A stretch of DNA of 64,000 nt from Chloroflexota bacterium (GTDB taxonomy: Bacteria; Chloroflexota; Anaerolineae; JAAEKA01). A program made the position numbers and the translations under genes. Positions 31,151 to 51,356 of the stretch are shown piece by piece. The notes beneath the pieces were generated by a model. It searched no databases. It saw only the letters and a list, made by a program, of their open reading frames with translations, and was not told where the DNA came from. Numbering within the stretch: position 1 is the first letter of the stretch; each line of letters opens with the position of its first letter. Where the stretch lies: contig JAYELL010000001.1 of NCBI GenBank assembly GCA_034717495.1, positions 66,649 to 130,648 of the forward strand, given 5' to 3'.

Positions 31151-31648
31151 CTACAAGCCCAGACCTGAACTGAGTTCCGCCAGGGCAGCCTTCTCCTGGT
31201 CACTGACGCGCACGCTGCCGATTCCTAAGAATCCACCCTCGCGTCCCGCCTCGGCCGTCGCCTGAGCGACACCCATTATCCACTTTTTGTAGCCCGTGGC
31301 TTCTTCTGCACTGCCTTTTTCTGCCACCAGGTTGGCGGCTTCTTCGATCTCGGTCAGCATGGCGGCCTTGGTAGCTTCCGGATCCTTCTTCTGCTCGTCG
31401 GTGAGGTCGAAATCCGATTTGGCGTCCTTGTCCTTGGATTTATCCTGGAAATCGGCCACCAATGCACCGACCAGGTCTTGAGCGTCCTCGGGCACGGGCT
31501 GTGCCAGGATCGCCTTGCTCATACCGGCGGTCTCTTTGAATACACTGGTCACGGCCAGATCGGCGATGATAAGATAGGTGCCGGCCAAAATCGGGGCCTG
31601 CATGAGTTGGCCCCACTCTTCCGCGGTATAATCTGTTTTCGTGGTCAC
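31151..31648 (-). CDS. hypothetical protein (165 aa), co-transcribed upstream of the acidic protein
   Basis: ORF with an N-terminal amphipathic or hydrophobic stretch (APILAGTYLIIADLAVTSVF) and a charged Lys/Asp/Glu-rich middle. No family recognised. Confidence 0.45.
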   Translation of the reverse strand: MTTKTDYTAEEWGQLMQAPILAGTYLIIADLAVTSVFKETAGMSKAILAQPVPEDAQDLVGALVADFQDKSKDKDAKSDFDLTDEQKKDPEATKAAMLTEIEEAANLVAEKGSAEEATGYKKWIMGVAQATAEAGREGGFLGIGSVRVSDQEKAALAELSSGLGL

Positions 31649-31933
31649 AATTCTCTCCCTGGTTTGGATGGCGTTGAGGCTTCAGCCGGTTTCGTGTCTG
31701 ACCGACCAAAGCATACTGAACAATTGCCGTTTCGTACATGGATTGCTCCGATTATACCCGCGGCATGCTGATAGCGCAAAAAATCAGTTTCTCAGACCTG
31801 GGTTATTCCCGCAGATAGCGCATAGTCCCTGTGTATTCCCAGGCGGGATTTCATTTGACAGCGCGACACCGCTGTGTTATCATCTCTTTGCAACATCTGT
31901 TCAAGCCTGTTCATCTGTTCAAGTGAGGCGCCG

Positions 31934-32971
31934 ATGCGTTCCGATGCCGACAGGCACACGCTCTTGTACAAGATCGCCAAGGCCTATTACGAGGACGGGC
32001 TCACCCAGCACCAGATCGGTCGACGCTTTAGTCTCTCCCGCGTCAAGGTCTCGCGCCTTTTGCAGGAGGCACGAGATGAACGAGTTGTCCAGATTGCCAT
32101 CGTTTCTTCCATTGACTCCAACGCGGACCTCGAACGTGAACTGGAAGCTCGCTTTGACCTTCTGGAGGCCGTCGTCGTCACCCCTGCGGACTACAGTGCT
32201 CCCGTGATTCTTCAGGAACTGGGTACTGCAGCGGCTAATCATCTGATGCGCTGCCTGCAGGGCAAGGAGATTGTGGCCCTGAGCTGGGGCACTACCCTGC
32301 ATGCCGTGATCGAGGCGCTGCCCGCTCAGAACTGGCCCGATCTGAAGGTCGTGCAGATCCTTGGTGGCGTTGGTGATCCAGAGGTCGAAGTTCATGGCAA
32401 CGATCTCTCCCGCCGGATGGCTCAATCCTTTGGCGCCCAACTTCGTTTCATGCCATCCCCGGGTATCGTTGGCAGCAGGCAAGTGCGCGACGCGTTGATC
32501 GGCGATCCCCAGATTGCGTCAAGCCTGGCATTGGGCCAACGGGCCGACGTGGCGCTGGTAGGCATCGGTGTGCCTATCCCGGGATCGGTGGTCGACCGGG
32601 CAGGTATTCTATCGAAGGATGAGATCGTCGAGTTGGCGAACCTCGCTGCTGTGGGTGACATTGCTCTGCGATTCTTCGACAAAAACGGCCAACCCACCCA
32701 GCACGCGATCAACGATCGTATCGTTGGCCTGGATATCGACCAAATGAGGCGGATACCCCGCAGGATCGGTGTGGCTGGTGGTAGTGACAAACACCAGGCG
32801 ATTGGCGCAGTGCTGCGTGGCGGCCTCGTCAATGTTATCGTGACCGATGAGCGCAGCGCCAGATATCTGCTCACCAGCTCCGGAAAGGCCCCGGATTCAG
32901 CCAACGGGATAGCAGCTCAGGCGACGATTGGCAACACCGTGCGATCGCCTGGCGAACTGGTTCATGGGTGA
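31934..32971 (+). CDS. SorC/DeoR-family sugar-binding transcriptional regulator
   Basis: N-terminal HTH LLYKIAKAYYEDGLTQHQIGRRFSLSRVKVSRLLQEARDERVVQIAI, followed by a ~250-aa sugar-phosphate-binding domain, as in CggR/DeoR(Bsu)/LsrR. Confidence 0.75.
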   Translation: MRSDADRHTLLYKIAKAYYEDGLTQHQIGRRFSLSRVKVSRLLQEARDERVVQIAIVSSIDSNADLERELEARFDLLEAVVVTPADYSAPVILQELGTAAANHLMRCLQGKEIVALSWGTTLHAVIEALPAQNWPDLKVVQILGGVGDPEVEVHGNDLSRRMAQSFGAQLRFMPSPGIVGSRQVRDALIGDPQIASSLALGQRADVALVGIGVPIPGSVVDRAGILSKDEIVELANLAAVGDIALRFFDKNGQPTQHAINDRIVGLDIDQMRRIPRRIGVAGGSDKHQAIGAVLRGGLVNVIVTDERSARYLLTSSGKAPDSANGIAAQATIGNTVRSPGELVHG

Positions 32972-33010
32972 AGGATTATCAGGATAACCTCCTGGAAGGG
33001 TAGTGGATTC

Positions 33011-34567
33011 ATGTCAGATTATCTTCTTGGTCTCGACTATGGCACCGGCGGTGCCAAGGCCTGTATTATCGACCCGGAGGGCAACGTCCTGGGCTTTGCT
33101 TTCGAGGAATATCCTTTCTATCATGACCATCCCGGCTGGTCGGAGCACGATCCCGATCGCTACTGGACTGTCGCCTGCCAAATGATCCAGGAATGCATCT
33201 CGCAGGCTCGCATTCAACCAGCCGAAATCAAGGGGCTTGCAGTTTCTTCCGCCTTGCCTTCCATGGTAATGGTGGACGAGCAGCACCAGCCAATTCATCG
33301 CGCCTACAACCTGATGGATAGGCGTGCAACCCGGGAGGTTGAATGGCTCAAGGAGAATATCGGCGAGCAACGGATCATGGATATCACGGCCAATCGTATC
33401 GAGGATCATCCTGCCCTGGTCAACCTGTTATGGGAAAAGACCAACCGTCCCGAGTCCTATGGGCAGATCTGGAAAGCCCTTACCATCGATGGTTTTATCA
33501 CCCTCAAGTTGACCGGCAGGCCGGTGGTTTGTCACGGCGGCGCGCCCTTCTACGGCGTGGCCTACAACCTGGTCGAGGAGAGCTTCGACCAACAGATGTT
33601 GAACGACATCGGGATCGATGGCAGCCTGATACCGGAGATCCATCGCAGCGAGGAGATCATCGGCGAGGTGACCTCTGCCGCCGCCGCTGAGACGGGCCTG
33701 GCAGCGGGCACGCTGGTCTGCGCCGGACAGGTTGACTTCAATGCCAGTTGCATCGCTGCCGGCATCGTCGACGAAGGCGACATCATGAGCAACCTGGGCA
33801 CGGTTGGCAACTTCGGCGTCATATTCACCGACAAGGCCTTCCCCTATTCACCTGTGGGCCTCTCCATGATTAACCTGGCCTTTACCGTGGACTCGGCCAA
33901 TACCTTGATGACCATTCCCTCGACCACCACCGGCGGCCAGTCGATTCGCTATCTGCGGGACGAATTTTCCAAGTACGAGATCGAGGTGGAGCGGGTGCTG
34001 GGTATCAGTTCGTATGATCTGCTCAATATGCAGGCAGCCGAGGTTCCCTTGGGCAGCGACGGTTTGATCATTCTCCCCTACCTGATGGGTGAACGAACGC
34101 CCATTTGGGATACCACTGCCCGGGGTGTCATCTTCGGTCTCTCGTTGAACCATACCAAGGGCCACATCGTACGTGCCATGATGGAGGCGGTAGCCTTTGC
34201 CCTGTACGACTCCTACCGCCTGATCGAAACATCTGGATTGAAGCTGAACACCCCCATGGTGCTCAACGAGGGTGGCGCGGTCAGCAAGCTCTGGCGCCAG
34301 ATCATTACAGATGTGTTCAACGTGCCCACAGTGCTGGTCAAACGACGGACAGGTGCTCCCTTTGGCGACGCAATCCTTGCCGGGGTGGCTACTGGTGTTT
34401 TCGACGATTATTCAGTTGCGAAGCAGTGGGCAGAATATGTCGACCGCATGGAGCCGATTCCAGGCAACCACCAGCGCTACATGCCTTATTTCGACCTTTA
34501 CAAAGACCTTTATGAACATGTCAAGGAGGATTTCAAAACGTTGGCGAAGCTACGAGGACAGCTATAG
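33011..34567 (+). CDS. FGGY-family carbohydrate kinase (xylulokinase/LsrK-like)
   Basis: [17 protein letters not shown]-terminal motif; FGGY domain 2 ([18 protein letters not shown]); 518 aa. Confidence 0.85.
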
Positions 34568-34584
34568 CAGATGAAAGGAAGAAA

Positions 34585-35403
34585 ATGAGCACCTCCCTCG
34601 GCAAGCAGGTGCGGCTGCACAGGTTGCAGAACCCGCAGTCGGGCCGGATCCTGACGATAGCCATTGACCATGCGCCCAGCTATGGCGTGCTGCCCGGCCT
34701 GGAGGATATCCAGGCGGTGATCGACCGCGTGGCCGCTGGCGGCCCCGACGCGGTCATGCTGATGAAAGGTCCTGCCCAGCGCTGTTTTGCGCCGTATGCA
34801 GGTGATATATCGTTGATACTCAAGTCGTCGACGCTGTCCCCATTCCATCCGACGCAAGACGTTTGGGTGAACCCGGTTGAGGATGCGCTTCGTTTGGGTG
34901 CAGACGCGATTTCCATGGCTCTGACTGTGGGCAGCGAGCAGCAGGCGGCGCTGGTGTCCAACCTGGCAGCGCTGGTACGGGAAGCGGAGCAGGTTGGGCT
35001 GCCCGTGATCGTACACGCCTACCCGAACGGCGAACTGGTGCCGCCAGACCAGATCTATTCGGCGGAACAGGTCAGCTACGCGGCTCGCCTGGGCATGGAG
35101 TTGGGCGTCGACATTGTCAAGACCTTCTACACCGGTTCGGCTGAGAGCTTCGGCACCGTAGTGGAGGCGGCCGCGCCTGCCCTAGTCGTGGCTGCCGGGG
35201 GACCGCGCCTGGATAGCGACGCCGATGTGTTGACTATGGCGTTCGCGGTCAAGGAGGCGGGCGCGGCGGGCCTGACGTTTGGGCGCAACGTGTGGCAGAG
35301 TGACAGCGCCCCATCCACGATCCGCGCGCTGGCGGCCGTGCTGCACGAGGAGGCTTCGGTAGACGAGGCGCTGGCGTTGTTGCCATCACAGGAAAGTGTT
35401 TGA
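34585..35403 (+). CDS. DhnA/FbaB-type class I aldolase family protein (LsrF/ADH-synthase-like)
   Basis: RLHRLQNPQSGRILTIAIDHAPSYG opening and the ~270-aa length match archaeal-type class I FBP aldolase, LsrF and DhnA. Confidence 0.7.
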   Translation: MSTSLGKQVRLHRLQNPQSGRILTIAIDHAPSYGVLPGLEDIQAVIDRVAAGGPDAVMLMKGPAQRCFAPYAGDISLILKSSTLSPFHPTQDVWVNPVEDALRLGADAISMALTVGSEQQAALVSNLAALVREAEQVGLPVIVHAYPNGELVPPDQIYSAEQVSYAARLGMELGVDIVKTFYTGSAESFGTVVEAAAPALVVAAGGPRLDSDADVLTMAFAVKEAGAAGLTFGRNVWQSDSAPSTIRALAAVLHEEASVDEALALLPSQESV

Positions 35404-36290
35404 TCATGCCGCTGGTCAATTTCAGGGAAATCCTGCAGGATGCCACCGATGACCGATACGGTGTGCCATGTCTTCTCGGTGGCAACCTTGAAATGGTCGT
35501 TGGCCAGATCAGGGCAGCAGAGGCATGTAATTCGCCCTTGATCCTCGCCTTCAATCAGGCCGTTACACCTGATGTGCCTATGTCTATCGGTCTGCCGATG
35601 ATTGTCAATGCGGCGCGAGAGGCTGCCGTGCCGGTAGCAACCATCCTGGATCACGGGATGCACCTTGAGCCAGTGGTGCAGGCCATTCACCTGGGAAGTT
35701 CCTCGGTGATGTACGACGGGTCTGGCCTGCCCTTCGAGGAAAATGTGCGACAGACGGCGGAAATCGTGCGGATCGCCCATTCCGTCGGGGTCGGCGTTGA
35801 GGCAGAACTGGGCGGCATAGGTGGCTCGTCACTGGAGGTAGGTGCGGCTGGACCCGAGCCGAGTTTCACCGATCCCGAAATGGCTGCAGAGTTCGTCGAA
35901 AGGACCGGCATCGATGCGCTGGCAGTCTCTTTTGGCAATGCCCATGGCCCTTATCAGGCAGATCCCGAGCTTGAACTGGACAGGGTTAAAAGAATCCGTG
36001 AACTGGTCTCGATCCCGCTGGTGATGCACGGCGCCTCCGGCCTGGTTGACAGCCAGTATCGGGAGATTGTAGAGAGTGGAATCAGCAAGATCAACTATTA
36101 CACAGCCATGGCTCGCGATGCCGCCCGGGATTTACGGGACTTGATGCTTGAGACCGAAGAGAACGGCCTCATTTATCACCACATTATTAAACGATCTATC
36201 GATTTCTATTATCAGGAAACAGAAAGATTACTTGTTGTTTTGGGTTGTGCCGGCAGGATTGCTGCCGGTGAGCGATTCAGGACTTACTGA
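35400..36290 (+). CDS. class II fructose/tagatose-bisphosphate aldolase family protein (GatY/KbaY-like)
   Basis: NFREILQDA..YGVP, SVMYDGSGLPFEENV (class II M(I/L)DGS motif), HGASG; 296 aa. Confidence 0.8.
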   Translation: MIMPLVNFREILQDATDDRYGVPCLLGGNLEMVVGQIRAAEACNSPLILAFNQAVTPDVPMSIGLPMIVNAAREAAVPVATILDHGMHLEPVVQAIHLGSSSVMYDGSGLPFEENVRQTAEIVRIAHSVGVGVEAELGGIGGSSLEVGAAGPEPSFTDPEMAAEFVERTGIDALAVSFGNAHGPYQADPELELDRVKRIRELVSIPLVMHGASGLVDSQYREIVESGISKINYYTAMARDAARDLRDLMLETEENGLIYHHIIKRSIDFYYQETERLLVVLGCAGRIAAGERFRTY

Positions 36291-36302
36291 AGGAAGTTCA
36301 GA

Positions 36303-37601
36303 ATGGAACTCTATGAAAACCTGTCGAAGCTGGAAGCAGCCGGTACGCCGATCCGGGTGGGCCTGGTAGGTTGCGGCCAGATGGGATCGGGCATGGTCCA
36401 TGTCACCAATCAGATGGCCGGCATGAAAACCCGCGCGATCGCCGATATCGATGTCCAACTTCCCATCAAAACCTTCCGCAAGATCGGTGTTCCGGAGTCG
36501 GATATCTGCGTCACAGCCAATCGTGGCGAGGCGCAGGATGCGTTGGCCCAGGGCAAGGTATTGGTGACCGAGGATGCCCTGCTTCTGACCCAGCTGGATG
36601 GCCTCGACAGTATCGTCGAAGCGACAGGATACACGGAGATCGGCGCTCAGGTCGCGTGGCATAGCATCATGAACGCCAAAAACGTAGTGATGCTTAACGT
36701 GGAAACCGATGTGACGGTCGGCGTATACCTTAACGAGTTGGCCAGACAGGTGGGTTGTGTGTACACAGTGGCCAGCGGCGACGAGCCCGGTGTGTGCAAG
36801 ATGTTGTACAACTTTGCCCGCAGTCTTGGCTTCGAAGTGGTATGCCTGGGCAAGGGTAAAAACAACGTCATCGACTACTATGCCACGCCCGATACCTGTC
36901 GCGAGGAAGCCCTCGGCAAGGGCATGAATCCCAAGATGTTGGCGGCATTCAAGGATGGTACCAAGACCATGGTTGAACTGGCTGCCATGTCCAACGCTAC
37001 TGGACTGGTACCCGATGTGCCTGGCACCCATGGCCAGAAGGTCGACCTGCCCGATCTCAACAAGATGCTTGTGCCGGTGAAGGACGGCGGCATCTTGAGC
37101 CAGCCCGGTTGTGTTGAGTACACCACTGGAAAGGTGGCGCCAGGTGTCTTTGCCGTCATTACCTCCCCAGACCGGCGAATTCGTGTCGATATGAAGTTCC
37201 TGGCCATGGGTGATGGTCCCTACTATACGCTGTATCGGCCTTATCATCTGTGCAACGTCGAGACGCCCATCTCCATTGCTGAGGCGGTCATCTACGGTGA
37301 AACAACGCTTGTTTCCAGGGACCTGGTATCAGAGGTGGTTGCCATCGCCAAACGGGATCTGGCGCCCGGAGACGTGGTAGATGACCTGGGAGGCTTCGAT
37401 TTCTTCAACCGTATCTACGCCTACGGGCAGGCTAAGGCGGCCAGGGGCATTCCCATGGGCCTGACGCCGGGCGGCACCGTGCTGAAGTCTATTGCCAAGG
37501 GCGAGATGTTCACTGAGGATAATTTCGCACCCGATTCCAGCCGCTTTGCCTTCAAGTTGCGCACCATTCAGGACGAAATGCTGGCGAGACGTGATTCGTG
37601 A
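36303..37601 (+). CDS. NAD(P)-binding oxidoreductase with C-terminal SAF domain (COG4091, homoserine-dehydrogenase-like)
   Basis: [15 protein letters not shown] Rossmann motif; ~430 aa with a C-terminal SAF-like region. The family assignment is from memory. Confidence 0.55.
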
Positions 37602-37692
37602 AACCTGAAGCGCCGTGCGTGATCCGGTGTGCGCGGGACGCCATACCTGACACGCATCACGCACTAACCAGCATATCTTTGAGAAATTACCT

Positions 37693-38757
37693 ATGACACC
37701 CACTACCATGCAAGCTGTAGTCGTGCGAGCGCCGATGGAATTTGGCGTGGAGGAAGTGCCCCTGCCTCAGGTGGACCCGGGTGGCCTTCTCCTTCAGGTT
37801 GAGGCCTGCGGTCTATGTGGTTCAGACCTGCGCACGTTGAGGGGCGGCCATCGTAAGGTGACCTTTCCCTGGATCATCGGTCACGAGATTTGCGGCACCG
37901 TTGTCGAAACGGGCACAGACTACCGCGGTCCCTGGCAACCCGGTCAGCAGCTTGCCGTAGGGCCCATCGTCTACTGCGGAACCTGCGACTTTTGCCAGGA
38001 TGGGCGATACGAGTTGTGCGAGAACTACCGCGAGATCGCCCAGGCCTGGCCTGGCGGCCTGGCAGATTACATCGCGCTTCCCCCGGAGAGCATTCGTCTC
38101 GGCAACGTTCGGGCAGTGTCCGCAGGAGTCGACCCTGCCTTCGCTGCCATCACCGAGCCTATCTCTTCCTGTCTGAGCGCGCAGGAGAAGGGCCAGGTAG
38201 GCTTGGGCGATACCGTGATGGTCATTGGTTCGGGACCAGTCGGTTGTATCCACATTGCCCTGGCCCGTGCACGCGGTGCCTCGAAGATATTCATTGCCGA
38301 TATCGTCGATGAAAGGCTCAGGCTGGCGGAAGCGTTCGAGCCTGACGCAACGATCAACGTTTCCGAACGCGATCTGGTGGAGGAAGTGCGAAGACTGACC
38401 GGCGGCAAGGGGGCCGATGTGACGGTGACAGCAACCCCGGCGCCTGTTGCCCAGGTCCAGGCTGTCGAACTGACCAGAAAGGGTGGTCGTATTCTACTGT
38501 TCGGTGGTCTACCCAAGGATCGCAGCAAACCCGGCGTGGATATGAATATTGTCCACTACAATGCCTTGCATCTCATCGGCACGACCATTTTTGCTCCCCG
38601 GCATCACCGGCTGGCGGTGCAGTTGGTCGAGTCGGGGCGGTTTCCCATGGACAAACTGGTTACCCACAGGTTTCCACTGTCCGAGTTCAACGCCGGCGCA
38701 ACTATGGCGCTGGAAGGAAAGGTCTTGAAGGCTGTTTTCCTGCCTGGTGTTGGCTGA
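37693..38757 (+). CDS. zinc-dependent medium-chain dehydrogenase (sorbitol/threonine-DH-like)
   Basis: [15 protein letters not shown] with GHEICG zinc ligands; second Zn site [15 protein letters not shown]; GSGPVG NAD motif. Confidence 0.8.
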
Positions 38758-38789
38758 TACCGGCTGTCAAGCAGCTAACTGGTGATTTC

Positions 38790-39881: not shown

Positions 39882-39976
39882 TCCCAGTCAGGCTACGGCT
39901 TGAACAGTTGGAATCCACTAACAAATCACCTGCTACTCACAGTGAACCGGACACCTTTCAAAGGAGAAACGATGCG

Positions 39977-41407
39977 ATGAACGTCATGGACAGGAAGACC
40001 ACCTTTGGCCTGATCGTAGGCTCGCGAGGGTTCTTCAATTCGGAACTGGCGGTGCAGGGCCGCAAGGACCTGCTGGCAAAGCTGGACGAACTGGGCTTCA
40101 ACTACGTCATCCCGCCCGAAGATGCCACGCCCAACGGCGTTATCGAAACCTACGCCGATGCCAAGATTTGCGCCGAACTGTTCAAGCAGCGCCGGGATGA
40201 TATCGATGGCGTTGTCGTGGTGCTGCCCAACTTCAGCGACGAGATGGGCGTTGTGTTCACCCTTGATATGGCCAGGCTCGACGTGCCGGTGATGGTGCAG
40301 GCTTGCGACGATGAGGATCCCATGAAGCTGCTCATCGACCAACGGCGGGATTCCTTCTGCGGAAAGATATCGGTCTGCAACAACCTCTACCAGTTCGGTA
40401 TTCCCTTTACCGACACAACCTATCACACCTGCACGATCGGCAGCGATCTCTTTTCGAAGGACCTGGACAGGTTCGCCCGCATCTGCCGGGTCGTAAAGGG
40501 CCTGACCAACATGCGGATCGGCGCCATTGGTGCCCGTCCGACTCCGTTCCACACCTGCCGTTACAGCGAGAAACTGCTCCAGAGCACCGGCGTCACGGTA
40601 GTCACCGTCGATCTTTCCGAAATGATGGCTTCAGCCAATGCGCTACGCCAGGGCGGCGCGCAGGCGGTGACCGACAAGGTGGACCAGATCCGGGCCTATG
40701 GCACCATCCCGGACTATATCCAGGATGAGGCCATCATTCGACAGGCTGCCTGGTCCGTTGCCGTAGAGACTTGGATGGCCGAAAACGAGTGCGATGCCAG
40801 TGCCATCCAATGCTGGACCTCGATCCAGCTCAACTATGGCTGCGCCACCTGTTTGACTATGAGCATGATGGGTGAGAAGTTGATGCCCAGCGCCTGCGAG
40901 GTAGACATCACTGGAGCGGTGTCCATGTATGCCTTGGTACTGGCCTCGGGCAATGCCGCTGGCTTTCTGGACTGGAACAACAATTACGGTGAAGACCGGG
41001 ACATGTGCATCAACACTCATTGCAGTAACTATCCCAAGAGCTTTATCGGCGAGACTCCGGAGATCTCCAACCTGGACGTGATCGGCGCGAGCGTTGGGGC
41101 TGACAAATCCTTCGGCGCTGTCAAGGGCCAGGTGGTTGCCGGGCCGATGACCTTTTTCCGCATGTCTACCGATGATACCCGGGGCGTGATCAAGTCGTAT
41201 GTGGGCGAAGGTGAATTCACCGATGATCCCACCAATATTCAGGGCGGCTCTGCCGTCTGCCGGATCGGCAACCTGCAGCAGATGATGAAGTATGTCTGCA
41301 AGAACGGCTTCGAGCACCACGTTGCCCAGGTACGCGGCAATTGGGCCGACGTCCTGGAGGAAGCGATCGCGACCTACCTGGGTTGGGATCTGTACCGGCA
41401 CCGGTAG
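39977..41407 (+). CDS. L-fucose isomerase-like family protein (short FucI/AraA-like)
   Basis: FGLIVGSRGFFNSELAVQGRKDLLAKLDELGFNYV...DGVVVVLPNFSDEMGV pattern of the short L-fucose-isomerase-like family; ~475 aa. Start at the ATG preceded by aaaggag. Confidence 0.6.
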   Translation: MNVMDRKTTFGLIVGSRGFFNSELAVQGRKDLLAKLDELGFNYVIPPEDATPNGVIETYADAKICAELFKQRRDDIDGVVVVLPNFSDEMGVVFTLDMARLDVPVMVQACDDEDPMKLLIDQRRDSFCGKISVCNNLYQFGIPFTDTTYHTCTIGSDLFSKDLDRFARICRVVKGLTNMRIGAIGARPTPFHTCRYSEKLLQSTGVTVVTVDLSEMMASANALRQGGAQAVTDKVDQIRAYGTIPDYIQDEAIIRQAAWSVAVETWMAENECDASAIQCWTSIQLNYGCATCLTMSMMGEKLMPSACEVDITGAVSMYALVLASGNAAGFLDWNNNYGEDRDMCINTHCSNYPKSFIGETPEISNLDVIGASVGADKSFGAVKGQVVAGPMTFFRMSTDDTRGVIKSYVGEGEFTDDPTNIQGGSAVCRIGNLQQMMKYVCKNGFEHHVAQVRGNWADVLEEAIATYLGWDLYRHR

Positions 41408-41555
41408 CGCACTGTGGTCAGCAATCAGTGATCGCTTATCTGTGACCTGATCACCGAATAGCGATTACCGGTGACTGAAAAGAAGGAGGTGATGCCAGGA
41501 AAGAAAACATCAATTCGGCCGAATCGCTCATCGCGACCATTCACTTAGGAGGATT

Positions 41556-43061
41556 ATGATGAGCAAGAGCGATCTAAATCGACGCCAATTCCTGCGCTAC
41601 AGCGCCATCGCTGGTGCGGGAGTGGCCGCGGCTGCCTGTGCACAACCTGCAGCTCCACCGGCAGCGCAGCCGGTAGAACCTGAGGCTGAAGCGCCGGCGG
41701 CTGCTCCTGAAGCGGAGGCCCCTGCTGCCGAGGAAGTGACGCTGGATGTCATGTCCCTCGCAGAGTACGAGGGGCCCTACCGGGAGATATGGAACATCTT
41801 CGAGGCCGGCCATCCGGGCATCAAGATCAATGTGTTCTCGATCAACGAGGACACGGCTGCTGCCTACGAGGCCAAGGTTGCCGGTGGTTACCTGGCCGCT
41901 ATCGAGCTGACCCAGGAGATGCAGATCTTCTTCGACAAAAACAACTACGAAATGGCCATCAACCTGGGCGAGCTGGACTTCCCCTGGTGGGATCGCTGGC
42001 AGTTCGATGTCAAGAACATCTGGGCAGATCTGCACGGCCTGCCCGGACCGAGGTCCCTGGACGTCTTCCAGGGTTTTGTGATGACCTGGCAGTACAACCA
42101 GGAACTCATGGAGCAGTCCGGCCTGGATCCCCATACCGACGTCAAGTCATGGGATGATCTGAAGAAATGGCTGGGAGATGGCGCCGAGTGGGTTGCCAAG
42201 ACCGACGGCGTGGACTGGTTCTACAACCAGGCCTGGCACAATTGGGTCTTCGGCAATAACTACATGGATGCCCTGCCCCTGGCCTTCGCCGATGGTCAGC
42301 GCGATCGCCAGGTCGATTGCTGGCTGGGTCGGACCAAGTTCAATGCGGAGGATTCGCCCTATCGCCATGCCTACGAGTTCTTCCTCGCGGCCAATGACGA
42401 AGGTTGGATGCCGCCCAGCATGTGGACCCGCCAGTGGGAGGGCGACATGGAAGCCTCCTACATCGCCGGCAACTCCGTCATGATGTTGCACGGCCCCTGG
42501 GTGTGGGACAAGGCCCTGGCCGCCGGTTCCGACTTCGCTGTCAACGACATGCAGGAAGGCTTACCGGTCACACCGCCCGCTGAGGGACAGGTTCCGTGGA
42601 TGCAGAGCGCACTGCCGCCTAACATCGACAACCAGTGGTTCCTGCGAATCGGCAACGAAGATACCCCCCACTGGGCACAGACCCAGGAGGCCTGGAACTG
42701 GTTCTGGAGCCCCGAGGCTGTGCCCTTCAAGGCTCAGGCCGAAGGGCGCTGGCCGCTGTATGACCTGGATGAACCGCTCGAACTGCAAGGACCGCAGTTT
42801 GTGCATGTCCTCAGTCAGATCGGCACACCCGGTGGAATCTGGGAAGATGCTCAGTTCGAGCAGAACCCGACCGGGAACCTGATGGCAAGCCCTTATCGCC
42901 TCAAGGGTTCCAAGGGTGTCTGGGACTGGGAGTCAAACAGCAACAACGAGGTGTTCGCCGACGTGTTGCAGGGCAAGATCACCGTTCAGCAAGCTCTGGA
43001 CATTGCCCAGCGCAACTGGGAAGAAAGCTTCGAGATTCCGGAAGAGGTCACCAACGGCTGA
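41556..43061 (+). CDS. ABC transporter extracellular solute-binding protein (CUT1 sugar type) with Tat/lipoprotein signal
   Basis: NRRQFLRYSAIAGAGVAAAAC signal with lipobox Cys, a Pro/Ala/Glu-rich linker, and a ~450-aa SBP body. RBS aggagg. Confidence 0.8.
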   Translation: MMSKSDLNRRQFLRYSAIAGAGVAAAACAQPAAPPAAQPVEPEAEAPAAAPEAEAPAAEEVTLDVMSLAEYEGPYREIWNIFEAGHPGIKINVFSINEDTAAAYEAKVAGGYLAAIELTQEMQIFFDKNNYEMAINLGELDFPWWDRWQFDVKNIWADLHGLPGPRSLDVFQGFVMTWQYNQELMEQSGLDPHTDVKSWDDLKKWLGDGAEWVAKTDGVDWFYNQAWHNWVFGNNYMDALPLAFADGQRDRQVDCWLGRTKFNAEDSPYRHAYEFFLAANDEGWMPPSMWTRQWEGDMEASYIAGNSVMMLHGPWVWDKALAAGSDFAVNDMQEGLPVTPPAEGQVPWMQSALPPNIDNQWFLRIGNEDTPHWAQTQEAWNWFWSPEAVPFKAQAEGRWPLYDLDEPLELQGPQFVHVLSQIGTPGGIWEDAQFEQNPTGNLMASPYRLKGSKGVWDWESNSNNEVFADVLQGKITVQQALDIAQRNWEESFEIPEEVTNG

Positions 43062-43176
43062 CATTCCTGCGTTCGTGGTGGGTGGCCTGGTGTCACCAAC
43101 CGGTCACCCACCACATTCCTGAGGCGTGGTAAGCCTTACGATTCGCGTACCAGGCAGTTCGCCAGCGGAGATGCTT

Positions 43177-44130
43177 ATGGCACCAACAACCGGACAGCAG
43201 TCCAACGGGATTACGGATAAATCAGGCAATCAACCCAGGATAAGCAAGCTGGAACGACGGCGTATTCTTCGTGATTGGGCCTTCATCACGCCGCAGCTCT
43301 TTCTTTTCGTCCTATTGACGATTGTGCCCTTCTTCGTCGCCATCCCGATCCTGTTCACCGACATGTCCCAGTTTAACGATCCAGCGATCAATCCGGTTGG
43401 ATTGCGCAATTTCACGGCAATTTTCGATAATCCCAGTGTGCAACGTGACTATTTCCCGGCGCTGCGACGCACCCTTATCTTTGTGGTCTTTAATTATACG
43501 ACGGTATATATCTTTGGATTGTCGCTGGCATTGCTCATGTACGAGGTTGGTTTCCGGGGCGGATTCTTCACCATCGTCTATCTGCCACTCATGGTGTCGG
43601 GTCTGGCGGTTGGTTACATGGCCGTGATGCTCTTCAGCCAGGAAACCGGAACGGCAAACCTGTTGCTTCAGGAAGTTGGGTTGTTGAAAAAACCGATTGA
43701 TATCTTTTCTGCCGAGGGGACTGCCTTTATCTTGCCGGGCCTGGTTGGCTGGCGATACGCCGGCTACAACATGGCGATTTTTCTGGCTGGGCTTTTGGCG
43801 ATTCCCAAGGAAACCATCGAGGCATCCATCGTAGACGGCGCGAGTTACTGGCAGCGCCTCTGGAAGGTCTATTTTCCCCAGATGCTGCCATCCTTTGTGC
43901 TGGCCACGACAATGTGTTTGATCGGCTCCTTCGCCGTTTTCGACGAACTGGTGGCCATGGGTGCTCTTTACGTCAATCCAGAGGCCAAGCTGTTAAGCAT
44001 TCTGTTCTTCACCTATGGGTTTCAGGTTGAACGGCTGGCCATGGGTATGACACTGGCAGTCGAGACCTTCCTGCCCCTGGTGGTTCTTGGTGTCGCTCTG
44101 CAGCGACTGCAGCGACGGCTGCAATACTAA
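43177..44130 (+). CDS. ABC transporter permease (MalF/UgpA-like)
   Basis: 6 TM segments; EAA-loop region (AIPKETIEASIVDGAS). Confidence 0.8.
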   Translation: MAPTTGQQSNGITDKSGNQPRISKLERRRILRDWAFITPQLFLFVLLTIVPFFVAIPILFTDMSQFNDPAINPVGLRNFTAIFDNPSVQRDYFPALRRTLIFVVFNYTTVYIFGLSLALLMYEVGFRGGFFTIVYLPLMVSGLAVGYMAVMLFSQETGTANLLLQEVGLLKKPIDIFSAEGTAFILPGLVGWRYAGYNMAIFLAGLLAIPKETIEASIVDGASYWQRLWKVYFPQMLPSFVLATTMCLIGSFAVFDELVAMGALYVNPEAKLLSILFFTYGFQVERLAMGMTLAVETFLPLVVLGVALQRLQRRLQY

Positions 44131-44150
44131 CAGCGAGGAGATCAGTTGCC

Positions 44151-45269
44151 ATGTCAGGCTCTGCTACTGCTTCGGATCAGCGATCCATTCGGCAACCCAT
44201 GTTGTCCTCTACCAATCGCAAACGACTCGTTCGGATACTTGCCGTCACGGTGATGCTAGTCTATACTCTCCTCACATTGTTTCCCTTTTACACACTTTTT
44301 ATCCGGTCGTTCGTCAGCACCAAGGACTCGACTGATCTCCACCTTTGGATCCCGGAGGCGGATGAAGTAAATTTGGACGCCCAGGTCGGTAACCTGGCGG
44401 TGTTCTACGATCTCGACCTCAAGGACCTGAAGGAGGCCTTCGGTATTCCGCAAACGGAATTCCTGATGGCGCGTACCTCGCTGCGCCAAATCGGTGAGAG
44501 GTACGACGTTCCTGAGGCACAAATCCGAGACTTCTTTGCGGGATTCTATACCTTCAACGGCTGGAAAACCTTGCTAACGGGCGAATTGTATGGCACCAGC
44601 TTCTGGGGCGCACTGTTCAGAACGCTTATTGTGACGGCCACCAGTCTTGCCCTGGGCATAGTCCTGTCAATATTTACCGGGTATGGCCTGGCAGGGTTGA
44701 GACGCAAGGATCAGATGCTTGTCTACAATCTATACCTGCTGCAGATGGTTATCCCAGCCATGCTTATCTTATTGCCTCAGTTTTTGATGATTCAGTGGTT
44801 CGCCAAGCTGATCCCCGGTTATGGCGATCCCGGAACCACGCGTCAAGCGCTGCAGCTTGGCTCGATTGTGCTCATCAACATCAAGGGCACTGCCCTATCG
44901 ACCATGATTCTTACGGCAGCCATCTCCGGTATTCCCAAGGAACTGGAGGACTCGGCCCAGATCGACGGTGCCAGCAGTATGCAGTACATTCGTTACATCC
45001 TGTTACCGCTGTTGAAGGTGCCAATCGTCAGTCTGATTGTTATTATGTTGCCCCTGATCTATAACCAGTTCCTTGAGCCCTACGTGTATCTGGACCCCGC
45101 CAACTCAACCCTTTTGCCCTTCACCCAGAGCGCCGTGGGTCAATTTTCGACCAACTTCCAACTCATCTACTCCGCTATCTTCGCCTCGGTGGTGCCGTTA
45201 GTGATTGTTTATCTGCTTTTCCGCAGCTTCTTCGTGGAGGGTGTGATGGCGGGGGCAATCAAAGGATAG
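44151..45269 (+). CDS. ABC transporter permease (MalG/UgpE-like)
   Basis: TM profile; EAA motif (SGIPKELEDSAQIDGAS). Confidence 0.8.
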   Translation: MSGSATASDQRSIRQPMLSSTNRKRLVRILAVTVMLVYTLLTLFPFYTLFIRSFVSTKDSTDLHLWIPEADEVNLDAQVGNLAVFYDLDLKDLKEAFGIPQTEFLMARTSLRQIGERYDVPEAQIRDFFAGFYTFNGWKTLLTGELYGTSFWGALFRTLIVTATSLALGIVLSIFTGYGLAGLRRKDQMLVYNLYLLQMVIPAMLILLPQFLMIQWFAKLIPGYGDPGTTRQALQLGSIVLINIKGTALSTMILTAAISGIPKELEDSAQIDGASSMQYIRYILLPLLKVPIVSLIVIMLPLIYNQFLEPYVYLDPANSTLLPFTQSAVGQFSTNFQLIYSAIFASVVPLVIVYLLFRSFFVEGVMAGAIKG

Positions 45270-45272
45270 CAT

Positions 45273-46922
45273 ATGCCGAGAGGCAAACCCCAACGCGTCG
45301 TCTTTCAGCCCAATACCTATCGCGGCTTCCAGCGCGGAGCTAACCAGATTGTCAATGCAGTGCGTCCTACATTGGGCCCGCGCTCGCGCACCGTGGTGAT
45401 TCAGCGAGAATTGGACGACAAGACCCCCGAGATGCTGGATGACGGCGGCACCATTGTGAAGCGAATCATCGCGCTTGCTGACCGGGACGAGGATGTGGGC
45501 GCCATGTTCGTTCGCGAGATGCTCTGGCGTTTACATGATGAGGTGGGAGATGGCACAGCCGCCGCCGCCGTGCTGTTCCAGTCGATCTATAACCAGGGCA
45601 TTCGTTACCTGGCTTCCGGCGGTAACGCCCGGATATTGGAGAAGCACCTGACGGAAGGACTCCAGATCATACTGGACCAACTGGGCGGGATGACCGAGCC
45701 GGTATCCGGCAAGCAGCAGTTGGCCCACCTGGCCGAAACGATCTGCTACGATCCGGCCATGGCCAGGCTACTGGGTGAGATATTTGACATAATCGGCGAG
45801 TTCGGAAGGCTCGAGATCCGCAAAGGGCGGACCCGGGATATGCGGCGTGAGTATGTGGAAGGGATGTACTGGGAGCGCGGCCTGATGTCCCGCCAGATGA
45901 TCACCGATCACGCCAGGACGCGCAGCGAACTGCAGAACCCCCATATTCTGATCAGTGATTTGCAGATAGATGATCCCGCGCAATTGCTGCCGTTACTGGA
46001 GATGGCGAAACGGGAAAACATCAAGGGACTGCTGATCGTCGCGGGCAAGATCAGCGACAACGCGCTCTCCATTCTGTTGGCAAATCGGCAAGAGGAGGGA
46101 TTCCAACCGGTTGCTGTCACGACGCCTGGCTATGGGGTGGAAGCGCAGCTTTGGGCCCTGGAAGACCTGGCTATCCTGACCGGTGGTCGTTCCTTCATCC
46201 AGGTGGCGGGAGATACCTTTGACGGTGTTCAACCCGAGGATCTGGGCAACGCCCGGCGCGCCTGGGCAGATTTGAAGAACTTCGGCATCATCGGCGGTGG
46301 CGGCGGCGCCAGGGCGTTGCGTAATCACATTGCTACCGTGCGCGCCTCTTATGATAACACGAAAAACCTGGTGTTGGTCGATAAGCTGAGAGAGCGGATC
46401 GGTAAGTTGCTGGGCGGATCGGCAACGCTATGGGTTGGCGCCAATACGGAATTGGAAGTGGATTTTCGAAAGGCAGTGGCCGACCGGACCGCGGCGGCCA
46501 TGCGTACCGCCATGCTCGACGGAATCGTTCCTGGAGGGGGCGTTGCCTTGTTGGCCTGTCGCCCCGCTCTCCGGGAGCGATTGCAGCAAAGCGAGAGCGT
46601 CGACGAACGAGCAGCCTTCCAAATATTGATCAAGGCACTGGAGGCACCGATTCGTGCCATTCTGCAGAACGCCGGGCTCGACGCAAGCGACGTGATGGCC
46701 GACATCCGGCTGGCCGGAAATGGCTACGGATTCGATGTGACGACTGAGACTGTAGTCAACATGAAGGAGGCTGGCATCGTCGACGCGACCGCCGTGCAAA
46801 AGGCAGCTGTCTTTTCAGCCGTTTCCGGTGCAGCTCTGGCCCTGACGGTCGATGTTATCGTCCACCACAGGCAGCCTGAACGGCAGATCAAGCGCGAGCC
46901 TGCCACGAGAAAGCGCCTCTGA
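45273..46922 (+). CDS. divergent GroEL/Cpn60-family protein (chaperonin paralog) with altered nucleotide-binding loop
   Basis: Collinear with GroEL over its full length: TLGPRSRTVVI (TLGPKGRNVVL), GDGTAAAAVLFQSI (GDGTTTATVLAQAI), WERGLMS (FDRGYLS), TPGYGVEAQ..LAILTGG (APGFGDRRK..IATLTGG), VPGGGVAL (VAGGGVAL), C-terminal VDATAVQKAAVFSAVSGAAL. The phosphate-binding Thr triplet reads AAA, and there is no GGM tail. No groES is adjacent; the start is 4 nt after the permease stop. Confidence 0.75.
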   Translation: MPRGKPQRVVFQPNTYRGFQRGANQIVNAVRPTLGPRSRTVVIQRELDDKTPEMLDDGGTIVKRIIALADRDEDVGAMFVREMLWRLHDEVGDGTAAAAVLFQSIYNQGIRYLASGGNARILEKHLTEGLQIILDQLGGMTEPVSGKQQLAHLAETICYDPAMARLLGEIFDIIGEFGRLEIRKGRTRDMRREYVEGMYWERGLMSRQMITDHARTRSELQNPHILISDLQIDDPAQLLPLLEMAKRENIKGLLIVAGKISDNALSILLANRQEEGFQPVAVTTPGYGVEAQLWALEDLAILTGGRSFIQVAGDTFDGVQPEDLGNARRAWADLKNFGIIGGGGGARALRNHIATVRASYDNTKNLVLVDKLRERIGKLLGGSATLWVGANTELEVDFRKAVADRTAAAMRTAMLDGIVPGGGVALLACRPALRERLQQSESVDERAAFQILIKALEAPIRAILQNAGLDASDVMADIRLAGNGYGFDVTTETVVNMKEAGIVDATAVQKAAVFSAVSGAALALTVDVIVHHRQPERQIKREPATRKRL

Positions 46923-46937
46923 GGGAAGCAGCTCGTT

Positions 46938-47882
46938 ATGACTAACGAAACCCAACTCCAGAATTACGTTCACTTGCTTGTCGTCTCCCCAGACTTTGCA
47001 GCCGACAGCACTTGCTTTGCCGCTCGGAATTCGGGTCTCCTGCGATCCACTGATGGCGGCCGTAGTTGGCAGGATGCCTATGAATCGATGGACCTCCAGA
47101 GCCAGCTGCCGACGTCAGCCGTTGCGCTCTCTCCCGATTTTCAGCGTGATGGGCACCTCTTTGCCGGCGCGCCCGGTGGCATTCTGCGATCCCTGGATCG
47201 GGGCGATACCTGGCAGGTAGCCCTCCTTGGCTCTCCCCCTCCCTTCGTGTCAGATCTGGCTGTGTCACCCAACTACAGGCGCGATGGCACGCTGTTTGCC
47301 GCGACTCTCGATGATGGCGTCTTTCGCTCCGCAGATCGCGCAACGAGCTGGGCATCATGGAATTTTGGCCTGCTTGATTTGGCCGTGATGGCACTGGCAA
47401 TTTCCCCCGGTTATACCGACGACGAGACTCTCTACGCTGCAACGGAAACGGGGATCTTTCGCAGCACCAACGGGGGGCGTGCCTGGCGCGAGCTGGCTTT
47501 TCCCACCGATCTTGCACCTGTTCTCCGCCTGGCCATATCACCCGATTTCGCCGAGGATAAAACGATCTTCGCCGGCACAGAATTGAATGGTTTGTTCCGC
47601 TCCAGGGATTCTGGTCAGACATGGTTCCCCCTGGGTCAGGATGAGCTGGCAGGCGCCATCAATGGCATCGTGCTTTCCCCTCAATATCCGGAAGACCCGT
47701 CGTTACTTGTGCTGCGGGGGGACTCTGTCATGGTCTCGCGCGATGACGGCGAATCCTGGGAGGCGCGATCGCTCGATCTGACTCCCCAAGGGGTTGTCTC
47801 TGCGGTGGCCGCTCCCTGGGGTTTCCATCCTTCGGCACCCCTGCTGCTTGGTTTGATCGGCGGCGAGCTCCTGCGGCTTTGA
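46938..47882 (+). CDS. BNR/Asp-box repeat beta-propeller protein (Ycf48/sialidase-like fold)
   Basis: Six SxDxGxTW-type repeats: STDGGRSW, SLDRGDTW, SADRATSW, STNGGRAW, SRDSGQTW, SRDDGESW. Confidence 0.65.
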   Translation: MTNETQLQNYVHLLVVSPDFAADSTCFAARNSGLLRSTDGGRSWQDAYESMDLQSQLPTSAVALSPDFQRDGHLFAGAPGGILRSLDRGDTWQVALLGSPPPFVSDLAVSPNYRRDGTLFAATLDDGVFRSADRATSWASWNFGLLDLAVMALAISPGYTDDETLYAATETGIFRSTNGGRAWRELAFPTDLAPVLRLAISPDFAEDKTIFAGTELNGLFRSRDSGQTWFPLGQDELAGAINGIVLSPQYPEDPSLLVLRGDSVMVSRDDGESWEARSLDLTPQGVVSAVAAPWGFHPSAPLLLGLIGGELLRL

Positions 47883-47883
47883 C

Positions 47884-51322: not shown

Positions 51323-51356
51323 TTATCTACTTATCTACTTGTTTCCTTGTCCCCCC

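Follow-up and report, generated by a model that had tools for sequence, protein, structure and literature searches.

Organization of the Operon

The DNA considered in this study is a stretch of 64,000 nucleotides, referred to here as the window, from a Chloroflexota bacterium of the Anaerolineae (contig JAYELL010000001.1 of assembly GCA_034717495.1, positions 66,649 to 130,648). It contains a run of 13 co-directional open reading frames (ORFs) on the plus strand, positions 31934 to 47882, whose families were assigned by scans with Pfam and NCBIfam models (Table 1). The signature gene of the run is the fifth, which by its sequence encodes a reductoisomerase-like enzyme of the DXR-II/DRL family (called DRL in what follows). 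The order of the genes and their families agree with an original prediction made from the sequence without database searches, as does the general description of a sugar catabolic operon governed by a SorC-type regulator. The gaps between the genes range from -4 to 148 nt, and almost the same succession of genes is found again in other genomes of Chloroflexota (as at the loci numbered L002, L006, L007, L046, and L092 in the survey described below), so the arrangement cannot be attributed to chance. The region is a genuine operon that takes up and breaks down a sugar.

The best-scoring promoter-like site anywhere in positions 31000 to 49000 is a sigma-70-like candidate about 50 nt upstream of the ATG of the SorC gene. 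Between its -10 box and that start lies a perfect direct repeat, two copies of CATCTGTTCAAG. The only exact matches to CATNTGTTCA in the window are in these two copies, with a third copy, carrying one mismatch, at 31717-31726. In 40 of 48 orthologous loci, the 200 nt upstream of SorC contain a related site of the form CAnnTGTTCA or TGAACAnnTG, as compared to 17% of random windows. The repeat is probably an autoregulatory operator bound by the SorC protein as a repressor, to judge from its position and conservation. The rest of the window shows no enrichment of the motif, and hence gives no sign of a regulon common to the operon and the apionate-like cluster downstream of it.

Table 1. Features of the window and their recurrence at related loci. 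Positions are those of the window. Locus counts are lower bounds, since many loci are truncated by the ends of contigs.
Feature	Position	Strand	Evidence	Loci
SorC/DeoR-type sugar-phosphate-sensing regulator	31934-32971	+	PF04198, 238 bits	51/84
FGGY carbohydrate kinase, XylB-like	33011-34567	+	FGGY_N + FGGY_C	31/84 (orthologous)
DhnA/DeoC-type class I aldolase, accessory	34585-35403	+	PF01791	3/84, plus L092
Class II ketose-(bis)phosphate aldolase, accessory	35400-36290	+	PF01116, 258 bits	14/84
DXR-II/DRL-family NAD(P)-dependent reductoisomerase-like enzyme, 432 aa (signature gene)	36303-37601	+	PF21135, 212 bits	
Zn-dependent polyol/polyol-phosphate dehydrogenase (Zn-ADH)	37693-38757	+	ADH_N + ADH_zinc_N	73/84 (adjoining DRL)
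DUF6786 protein, 363 aa, galactose-mutarotase-like beta-sandwich fold (predicted)	38790-39881	+	PF20583; AlphaFold/Foldseek	23/84
L-fucose-isomerase-superfamily aldose-ketose isomerase	39908-41407	+	Fucose_iso_C only	53/84
CUT1 solute-binding lipoprotein, 501 aa, oligosaccharide-binding type (predicted)	41556-43061	+	TAT signal; AlphaFold/Foldseek	31/84
First CUT1 permease, MalF/MalG-like	43126-44130	+	BPD_transp_1	32/84
Second CUT1 permease, MalF/MalG-like	44151-45269	+	BPD_transp_1	29/84
Divergent GroEL paralogue	45273-46922	+	Cpn60_TCP1	24/84
Cytoplasmic BNR/Asp-box beta-propeller	46938-47882	+	BNR, Sortilin-Vps10, PSII_BNR	18/84
Sigma-70-like promoter candidate, TTGACA-17 nt-TATCAT with TG extension	31855-31883	+	11/12 matches	
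Putative SorC operator, perfect 12-nt direct repeat x2, 18-nt spacing	31894-31923	+	Repeat search	
Second FGGY type				19/84
SIS protein, 207 aa, best match arabinose-5-phosphate isomerase KdsD/GutQ (not in window)				23 loci
Glyoxalase_4 protein (not in window)				15 loci
Xylose-isomerase-like TIM protein (not in window)				14 loci
Complete CUT2 transporter with own ATPase (not in window)				~12 loci
Transporter-less sugar cluster: two Zn-ADHs, Gfo/Idh/MocA, GntR/FCD, three short-chain dehydrogenases/reductases (SDRs); also PGDH-like 2-hydroxyacid dehydrogenase, RPE-like, PF04199 cyclase, GHMP kinase, D-apionate-lactonase homologue	48902-61612	-	Pfam	
D-apionate-lactonase (ApnL) homologue of that cluster	59516-61612	-	NF049900	
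Squalene/phytoene synthase family gene	62537-63622	+		
Carbohydrate-utilization island	13107-25290	+		

The Signature Enzyme

DRL enzymes were reportedly the subject of earlier work by Sangari (2010) and by Perez-Gil (2012; PDB 3UPL/3UPY). The gene in the window had been called a COG4091 oxidoreductase; the gene itself stands, but its product, judged by sequence, is a DXR-II/DRL-family protein. The Pfam scan assigns it to PF21135 (DRL_cat) with 212 bits against a cut-off of 27, and it aligns end to end (residues 8-429, E = 1e-102) with the crystal structure of the DRL/DXR-II of Brucella abortus. It is 41% identical to the Brucella protein and 40% to that of Listeria, and those two are likewise 41% identical to each other. 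Relatives at 67-83% identity number in the hundreds within the Chloroflexota, and more distant homologues, at 30-35% identity, are found in other gene contexts.

In the Brucella enzyme (whose PDB numbering is the published residue numbering), K191, K193, and T229 have been reported as anchors of fosmidomycin or substrate and R320 and Y322 as residues of the dimer (PMC3847144). The five correspond to K184, K186, T222, R312, and Y314 of the window protein and are kept in at least 90% of its clade, and E174 of the reference is replaced by M. An alignment of 89 homologues included five reference proteins, from Brucella (the solved structure), Agrobacterium, Priestia, Listeria, and Ligilactobacillus. 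At 77 of the 104 positions that are invariant in the references, the clade of the window protein is at least 90% identical, and the active-site motifs NVExD, GDEP, GKGKNN, DGxKTMxE, and RPxH are all kept. A comparison of the reference DXR-II proteins with this clade found no residues that might act as a specificity switch, the remaining differences being either conservative or variable.

Family membership, alignment over the full length, and the anchoring and dimer residues are thus common to the window protein and the DXR-II/DRL of Brucella, Listeria, and Chloroflexus. Those proteins have been described only as an alternative enzyme of the biosynthetic MEP pathway (MEP being 2-C-methyl-D-erythritol 4-phosphate), whereas the window protein is encoded in a regulated operon for sugar import and catabolism. 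DXR activity, that is, reductoisomerization of DXP (1-deoxy-D-xylulose 5-phosphate), has been shown for the family members of Brucella and Listeria, and those of Brucella, Listeria, and Chloroflexus complement DXR-deficient E. coli (PMC3847144). Active DXR-II was also found in Chloroflexus, which has the mevalonate pathway only, and in Finegoldia, which has neither pathway, an observation left unexplained (PMC3847144). A 2026 review saw "no defining pattern" in the distribution of DXR-II.

Related Loci

Relatives were collected by a scan of one genome per species, which gave 491; the 80 best loci were retrieved, each with flanks of 10 kb. In all, 84 loci were scanned by tblastn with the proteins of the window, and all their ORFs were clustered de novo. 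The loci come mostly from Anaerolineae, Caldilineae, and Ardenticatenia, with some from Clostridia, Spirochaetota, Planctomycetota, and Zixibacteria.

DRL and the adjoining Zn-ADH are the conserved centre of the cluster, and the recurrent core consists of a regulator, an isomerase, an FGGY kinase, DRL, and Zn-ADH, together with an importer of either the CUT1 or the CUT2 class. The loci of Clostridia and Spirochaetota are pared down to FucI-like isomerase, FGGY kinase, DRL, Zn-ADH, and SIS protein, with a LacI regulator. The DhnA-type and class II aldolases, by comparison, are lineage-specific accessories. The SIS gene, the class II aldolase gene, and genes for the E1 and E2 subunits of a dehydrogenase complex (considered below) are mutually exclusive among the loci.

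The co-occurrence of DRL with Zn-ADH, a SorC or LacI regulator, kinase, isomerase, and importer in Chloroflexota, Clostridia, and Spirochaetota speaks for a catabolic rather than a biosynthetic context. One might still suppose that DRL is the organism's biosynthetic DXP reductoisomerase, set by chance within a sugar operon, since the family is defined by its DXR activity (PMC3847144) and a squalene/phytoene synthase gene lies in the window. I consider this very improbable, given the tight linkage to Zn-ADH, kinase, isomerase, regulator, and importers across three phyla, the existence of genomes with two paralogues, each in a sugar cluster, and the lack of any other gene of the MEP pathway nearby among the Pfam-scanned ORFs of the window.

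The genomes with two paralogues are those of L054, L081, and L084. In each, the two DRL proteins are about 42% and 62-66% identical to that of the window, and each lies in its own cluster, one with the order SorC-SIS-ZnADH-DRL-FGGY2 beside another with the order FGGY-DRL-Glyoxalase-FucI.

The Other Catabolic Enzymes

None of the catabolic enzymes of the operon reaches the cut-off of any NCBIfam equivalog model, whether for Lsr, fucose, rhamnose, xylose, tagatose, or inositol enzymes, so that no characterized pathway is matched, in agreement with the original suggestion that the substrate may be uncharacterized. The regulator falls below the equivalog cut-offs for both LsrR and DeoR; it scores higher against the Bacillus-type DeoR model (240 bits) than against LsrR (NF011947, 163 bits, with a cut-off of 486), and it shares 34% identity with the regulator encoded in the D-apiose cluster of E. 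coli. The best NCBIfam match of the kinase is XylB (299 bits, cut-off 380); the scores are lower for LsrK (NF008187, 200 against 528) and FucK (86 against 471). Its orthologues, 61-84% identical, are found in 31 loci, and it is 23% identical to the apulose kinase AplK of E. coli. The DhnA aldolase, which resembles class I fructose-bisphosphate aldolase (FBA), comes close to the ADH-synthase subfamily (238.5 bits against 241) and stays far from LsrF (147 against 297). No NCBIfam equivalog cut-off is reached by the class II aldolase or by Zn-ADH.

The model closest to the isomerase is that of the sulfoquinovose isomerase SftI, a weak match (108 bits, cut-off 700), with no match to a FucI equivalog and none to a sequence in PDB. 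Translation of the isomerase probably begins at an internal ATG, close to position 39977. The gene adjoins that of the kinase in the loci of Firmicutes, and in L018 and L036 it is replaced by one for a non-homologous TIM-barrel isomerase of the xylose isomerase (XI) type.

With these scores one can evaluate the suggestion that the triad of regulator, kinase, and DhnA aldolase echoes the Lsr system, and hence that the operon might import and destroy autoinducer 2 (AI-2) or a close relative such as phospho-4,5-dihydroxy-2,3-pentanedione (phospho-DPD). The three superfamilies, SorC, FGGY, and DhnA, are indeed those of LsrR, LsrK, and LsrF, but the likeness ends at the level of family: all three proteins miss the Lsr cut-offs by a wide margin, and models of other subfamilies give them higher scores. 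LsrG and the CUT2 transporter LsrACDB, features of Lsr, have no counterpart in the operon, which has a CUT1 importer without ATPase in place of the latter. The aldolase, moreover, is dispensable across the relatives, missing from almost all of the related loci. An Lsr-type function may be regarded as largely refuted. The echo could nonetheless matter in a limited, mechanistic sense, if the LsrF-related DhnA aldolase served with the class II aldolase and Zn-ADH to dispose of DXP.

The original prediction also took the cleavage of a keto-sugar phosphate by two aldolases to define the pathway. In its fuller form, the idea is that the operon degrades a linear pentose, deoxyhexose, or polyol, with DRL as a plain polyol-phosphate dehydrogenase that leaves the carbon skeleton as it is and the aldolases splitting a ketose phosphate into dihydroxyacetone phosphate (DHAP) and an aldehyde. 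Isomerase, kinase, aldolase, and dehydrogenase make up the classic set for such a route, in Listeria and Ligilactobacillus DRL occupies the place of sorbitol-6-phosphate dehydrogenase, and Zn-ADH and DRL could, as a redox pair, epimerize a pentulose phosphate by way of a pentitol phosphate. Against this, most related loci have no aldolase (Table 1), which deprives the cleavage of its defining role, and there is no equivalog-level match to enzymes of fucose, rhamnose, xylose, tagatose, or inositol metabolism. A plain dehydrogenase is also hard to reconcile with a family whose members complement DXR-deficient E. coli (PMC3847144) and whose catalytic residues and residues that bind metal and phosphate are kept in the window protein. 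I judge a linear substrate improbable. The two aldolases may instead handle triose or ketose phosphates.

The comparison with the L-fucose route that had been called for reveals no orthologous set of FucI, FucK, and FucA. The fucPIKA system has in common with the operon the C-terminal domain of the FucI superfamily and an FGGY kinase, but its aldolase is of the FucA type (PF00596), not found in the operon, whose aldolases belong to PF01791 and PF01116. By these sequence comparisons, the operon belongs to none of the Lsr, fucose, xylose, and tagatose systems or the apiose systems published so far; their defining enzymes are either missing from it or score below their cut-offs.

A closer parallel in logic is the ery operon of Brucella, in which the SorC regulator EryD, the FGGY kinase EryA, a polyol-phosphate dehydrogenase, and isomerases lead to an intermediate of the pentose-phosphate pathway. 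There, as may be the case here, SorC and FGGY proteins attend the oxidation of a tetritol phosphate and its isomerization, with no aldolase. It differs in that EryB is a flavoprotein, from another family of dehydrogenases, and in that the carbon skeleton is not rearranged.

DUF6786

The 363-aa protein encoded after Zn-ADH, left as unknown in the original prediction, can now be assigned to DUF6786 and given a probable fold. Its AlphaFold model, based on an alignment of 35 sequences, has a pLDDT of 89 and a pTM of 0.90, and the top Foldseek matches are to proteins like galactose mutarotase: 3Q1N (E = 1e-7), then 3DCD, 1LUR, and 1YGA. These have a probability of 1.0 and TM-scores of 0.47-0.59, at only 6-12% identity (a search of PDB by sequence finds no match), and the invariant residues H300, E313, and E315 are present. 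The model makes it probable that the DUF6786 protein opens or anomerizes the ring of an aldose. At the clostridial locus L072, the DUF6786 position, just before the isomerase, is occupied by a DUF4432 protein, from what I take to be another mutarotase-like family.

DUF6786 is not confined to operons with DRL, because L091 (from Kiritimatiellae) carries it without DRL. There it lies in a cluster regulated by a GntR protein, along with SDRs, an AP_endonuc_2 protein, a cupin, an Asp/Glu racemase, a Zn-ADH, and an aldo-keto reductase.

The Importer and the Genes That Follow It

The importer is of the CUT1 class and without an ATPase of its own, as originally predicted: there are two BPD_transp_1 permeases (GlcT/MalF-like and MalG/UgpE-like by NCBIfam) and no ORF of the operon with Walker A and LSGGQ motifs, the only such pair in the window being at 114-441. 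The solute-binding protein (SBP), with a twin-arginine translocation (TAT)/lipoprotein signal and a linker rich in Ala and Pro, has no Pfam SBP match and no PDB sequence match. Its designation as an SBP is upheld by the AlphaFold model (pLDDT 86), whose Foldseek neighbours (best E about 1e-14, TM-scores 0.6-0.76) are CUT1 proteins that bind chitobiose/chitin-oligosaccharide, sucrose/maltotriose, maltose (MalE), raffinose (RafE), and lacto-N-biose, and by its relatives, which match PF13416 or PF01547 and are annotated as SBPs of carbohydrate ABC transporters. Because the modelled protein resembles CUT1 binders of oligosaccharides, it suggests that what is taken up is a disaccharide, an oligosaccharide, or a glycoside. 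An SBP from the CUT2 systems of sister loci was also considered as a clue to the substrate; it matched apiose-, ribose-, and inositol-type SBPs weakly (63-73 bits) and was uninformative.

The GroEL paralogue exceeds the cut-off of a loose GroEL subfamily model (389 bits against 352) and falls short of the equivalog TIGR02348 (372 against 582). It keeps the GDGT motif, D52, D398, and the GGG motif, and it has GDGTAAA for GDGTTT (T90A/T91A), apical changes (Y199L, Y203Q, F204M), and no GGM tail. No gene for GroES adjoins it. In 24 loci (among them L002, L006, L007, L009, L019, L023, L025-L027, L038, L040, L041, L044, L046, L048, L061, L070, L073, and L077) the gene follows that of the second CUT1 permease by 2-3 nt, and it is never found with a CUT2 transporter. 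Such a dedicated paralogue may be a functional accessory of the CUT1 importer.

The BNR protein, which has four Asp-box motifs and no signal peptide, reaches 98 of the 175 bits set for the "F510_1955 family glycosylhydrolase". In its 18 loci, the gene comes directly after those of the CUT1 permeases and the GroEL paralogue, except in L082, where it lies elsewhere in the locus. BNR and GroEL paralogue thus track the CUT1 module across the loci, and neither is found where the transporter is CUT2, which is of the monosaccharide type. Possibly, BNR is the glycosidase for an imported glycoside.

DRL in Other Bacteria

DRL genes outside the clade of the window fall into a few settings. In plasmids of Agrobacterium (L087), Aminobacter (L093), and Rhizobium (L094), DRL is immediately followed by the subunits E1alpha, E1beta, and E2 of a dehydrogenase complex of the acetoin or pyruvate dehydrogenase type. 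The clusters of Agrobacterium and Rhizobium also contain E3, a SorC-type regulator, a sugar transporter, and a sugar kinase, with lipoyl synthase (LipA) in that of Agrobacterium and a class II FBA after that of Rhizobium. In Priestia (L086), E1alpha-E1beta-E2-E3 belong to the same cluster as DRL, a few genes upstream of it, in the company of SorC regulators, a transporter of the major facilitator superfamily (MFS), and an FGGY kinase. In Listeria innocua (L088) and Ligilactobacillus salivarius (L089), DRL stands at the place of sorbitol-6-phosphate dehydrogenase in an operon for a Gut-type phosphotransferase system (PTS). These two operons carry GutM and a SorC-type regulator, and in Ligilactobacillus DRL is followed by fsa and tkt. 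A homologue from Deinococcus (35% identity), in a nucleotide-sugar cluster, is a distinct case.

The Rhizobiales, Priestia, Listeria, and Ligilactobacillus operons resemble that of the window in that DRL (here 39-46% identical) is accompanied by a SorC-type regulator and by either a sugar kinase or a PTS, and differ from it in having E1/E2/E3 or PTS instead of Zn-ADH, isomerase, DUF6786, GroEL paralogue, and BNR. In these cultured bacteria, the homologues occupy the place of a polyol-phosphate dehydrogenase in operons with a kinase or PTS. The theme of the family is a regulated catabolic operon in which a kinase or PTS would yield a polyol phosphate and DRL would oxidize it. The chemistry of the operons with E1/E2 suggests a route from methylerythritol to MEP, then to DXP by DRL working in reverse, and finally to acetyl-CoA and glyceraldehyde 3-phosphate. 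No such pathway is described in the literature that was searched, which concerned the catabolism of methylerythritol, DUF6786, BAB2_0264, apiitol/aceric acid, and apionate oxidoisomerase.

The operon of the window might serve the same end. Its substrate would then be 2-C-methyl-D-erythritol or a related C-methyl-branched sugar, converted by the kinase to MEP and by DRL to DXP, which is then degraded. In the sister operons, the acetoin-dehydrogenase-like E1/E2/E3 would cleave DXP to the two products just named; in the window, Zn-ADH would oxidize it to 3-hydroxy-2,4-pentanedione 5-phosphate, from which the DhnA aldolase, the class II aldolase, or both would produce DHAP and an acetyl unit. The idea draws on an active site essentially identical to those of the five DXR-II-type references, on the linkage of DRL to E1/E2 in Rhizobiales, in Priestia (a few genes apart), and in Leptolinea of the window's own clade, and on the aldolases at hand, an LsrF-related DhnA (147 bits) and a class II enzyme in the window and a class II FBA in Rhizobium. 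It would also make sense of active DXR-II in bacteria without the MEP pathway (PMC3847144), which a biosynthetic role does not explain.

Several observations count against methylerythritol. For a polyol, an aldose isomerase and a mutarotase-like protein would be superfluous, but both are widespread in the clade, and the KdsD-like isomerase of 23 loci cannot act on a 1-deoxy ketose. With DhnA in 3 of 84 loci and L092, and E1/E2 in about four, most loci would lack any means to cleave DXP. The neighbours of the apiosidase family and the apionate-lactonase neighbours, described in the next section, point elsewhere. Finally, the SBP and kinase of the window are not orthologous to those of Agrobacterium and Priestia; a transfer of substrate from those clusters (Agrobacterium SBP, Priestia kinase) was attempted and given up on the same grounds. 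On balance, I regard a C-methyl-branched substrate as rather unlikely for this operon.

A Possible Route for D-Apiose

The reading I prefer, with a probability of about 0.4, is that the operon degrades a branched aldose, which is probably D-apiose, and that DRL acts in reverse to give a pentulose 5-phosphate. Within this model I infer the substrate, the direction of DRL, the order of steps, and the roles of BNR, the GroEL-like protein, and the aldolases.

The operon would be controlled by an autoregulated repressor of the SorC family, and D-apiose would arrive as a small glycoside derived from plants, imported by the CUT1 SBP and the two permeases with an ATPase supplied in trans. A cytoplasmic hydrolase would then free the sugar, here perhaps BNR, in sister loci an enzyme of the GH140/apiosidase family, and the mutarotase-like DUF6786 would open or anomerize the furanose. 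The isomerase of the FucI superfamily, the XylB-like kinase, and the Zn-dependent dehydrogenase would lead to 2-C-(hydroxymethyl)tetritol 4-phosphate ("apiitol phosphate", the hydroxymethyl analogue of MEP). Lastly, DRL, running in the oxidative direction that rearranges the skeleton, would convert this branched polyol phosphate to the straight-chain D-xylulose 5-phosphate (Xu5P), which enters the pentose-phosphate pathway. The chemical reasoning behind the last step is as follows: D-apiitol 1-phosphate would be MEP with CH2OH in place of CH3, with the same D-configuration beside the phosphate, and the DXR reaction run backward on it would give Xu5P.

Such a route needs no aldolase, which matches the absence of one from most loci. 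That a free aldose enters the route, and not a polyol, is suggested by the canonical pair of isomerase and kinase, by the XI-type replacement in L018 and L036, by the mutarotase-like DUF6786 (with DUF4432 in L072), and by the KdsD-like isomerase. The KdsD/GutQ-like SIS protein of 23 loci also speaks for the chemistry of pentose 5-phosphates. That the aldose is apiose is suggested by three independent sets of neighbours: proteins of PF13204, the ApnL-homologue cluster in the window, and the same set of genes beside the operon of Caldilineaceae. The PF13204 proteins ("apiosidase-like", of the GH140 family), with DUF5060, are encoded directly upstream of DRL in the Chloroflexota loci L018 and L036; in L034 they lie near DRL, and in L059, which is from a Firmicute, they directly follow the cluster.

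The ApnL homologue of the window, 11.6 kb downstream of the operon, matches NF049900 with 325 bits (E = 1e-96), below the cut-off of 750, and is 57% identical to a PF25837-9 protein whose gene divergently adjoins the operon in the Caldilineaceae locus L002. It belongs to the transporter-less cluster on the minus strand (Table 1), and an apionate-like gene set likewise adjoins the operon divergently in Caldilineaceae; in L006 and L007, too, genes for Gfo and Zn-ADH are found on the flanks of the operon. The GHMP kinase of the cluster falls just short of the mevalonate-kinase model (157.7 bits against 163). The cluster probably serves the same sugar as the operon, and it could be an undescribed oxidative variant of apiose/apionate catabolism that shares the importer of the plus strand.

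Known D-apiose catabolic clusters are said to have been treated by Carter et al. in 2018. The aps-apl-apt cluster of E. coli ST131 and Pectobacterium likewise combines a SorC-type regulator, an FGGY kinase, an ABC importer, and oxidoreductases (PMC13001218), and a homologue of ApnL (as noted, below the equivalog cut-off) and a Gfo/Idh/MocA dehydrogenase are encoded next to the operon of the window. The importer of those systems, however, is CUT2, whereas that of the operon is CUT1. There is no counterpart of the apulose-4-phosphate transketolase AptA/AptB in the operon, nor any transketolase among the Pfam-scanned ORFs of the window. DRL, Zn-ADH, the FucI-like isomerase, and DUF6786 occur in no described apiose route. 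Two other candidates for signs of apiose were examined. A kinase beside the cluster of L068, 39% identical to E. coli AplK, was dropped as a possible apulose kinase when NCBIfam identified it as glycerol kinase (GlpK, 551 bits), and the split transketolases near some loci are generic enzymes that count as weak evidence only.

A number of points weigh against D-apiose. The active site of DRL is, in sequence, indistinguishable from those of the five DXR-II-type references, so that MEP/DXP would be equally favoured as substrate. The adjacency of DRL to E1 and E2 fits the cleavage of DXP, not of Xu5P, and it occurs also in Leptolinea (L070 and L073), with the same type of SBP and the GroEL paralogue. 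All of the family matches used here are below equivalog cut-offs, and the substrate is deduced from them and from neighbouring genes. The kinase is XylB-like, with only 23% identity to apulose kinase. The PF13204 proteins are distant from the single characterized apiosidase, their best match in PDB being the uncharacterized 4N0R, and markers of apiose are present in only about 6-8 of the roughly 80 loci. The model leaves unexplained the role of the GroEL paralogue, those of the two aldolases, and that of the Glyoxalase-fold protein of sister loci.

What appears to be new is the presence of a DXR-type reductoisomerase within a catabolic operon, a component without precedent, for which I propose a catabolic use on the strength of sequence and context. 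One may go further and suppose that the DXR-II/DRL proteins are mainly catabolic oxido-isomerases of branched polyol phosphates, that the operon represents a fifth, undescribed pathway for D-apiose, that the sister operons serve the catabolism of methylerythritol, and that the GroEL paralogue may be an accessory of the CUT1 importer. This wider scheme is tentative, and taken as a whole I find it somewhat doubtful.

Other Genes of the Window

Just past the apionate-like cluster lies the gene of the squalene/phytoene synthase family, the only gene related to isoprenoids that was seen in the window. Upstream of the operon, positions 13107-25290 are a carbohydrate-utilization island on the plus strand, with genes for MFS transporters, a Gfo/Idh/MocA protein, a 619-aa SIS-domain protein, a URO-D-like protein, a PfkB kinase, a HAD hydrolase, and a GH2 protein like beta-mannosidase.

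Significance

For 15 years DXR-II/DRL has been treated as an odd and patchily distributed substitute for DXR in isoprenoid synthesis and as a caveat to the use of fosmidomycin's target for drugs. The operon described here and its approximately 80 relatives place the family in regulated clusters for the import and catabolism of sugars, and so give it a concrete, testable role: it would take part in degrading branched sugars or polyols of plants, for instance apiose or methylerythritol. A catabolic DXR-II would, if real, account for active enzyme in bacteria that lack the MEP pathway. If the proposal is true, there would be a new carbohydrate pathway that proceeds through rearrangement of the carbon skeleton, with functions for DUF6786 and for a subfamily of FucI-like isomerases, and it would aid the annotation of the abundant uncultured Chloroflexota of sediments and sludge.

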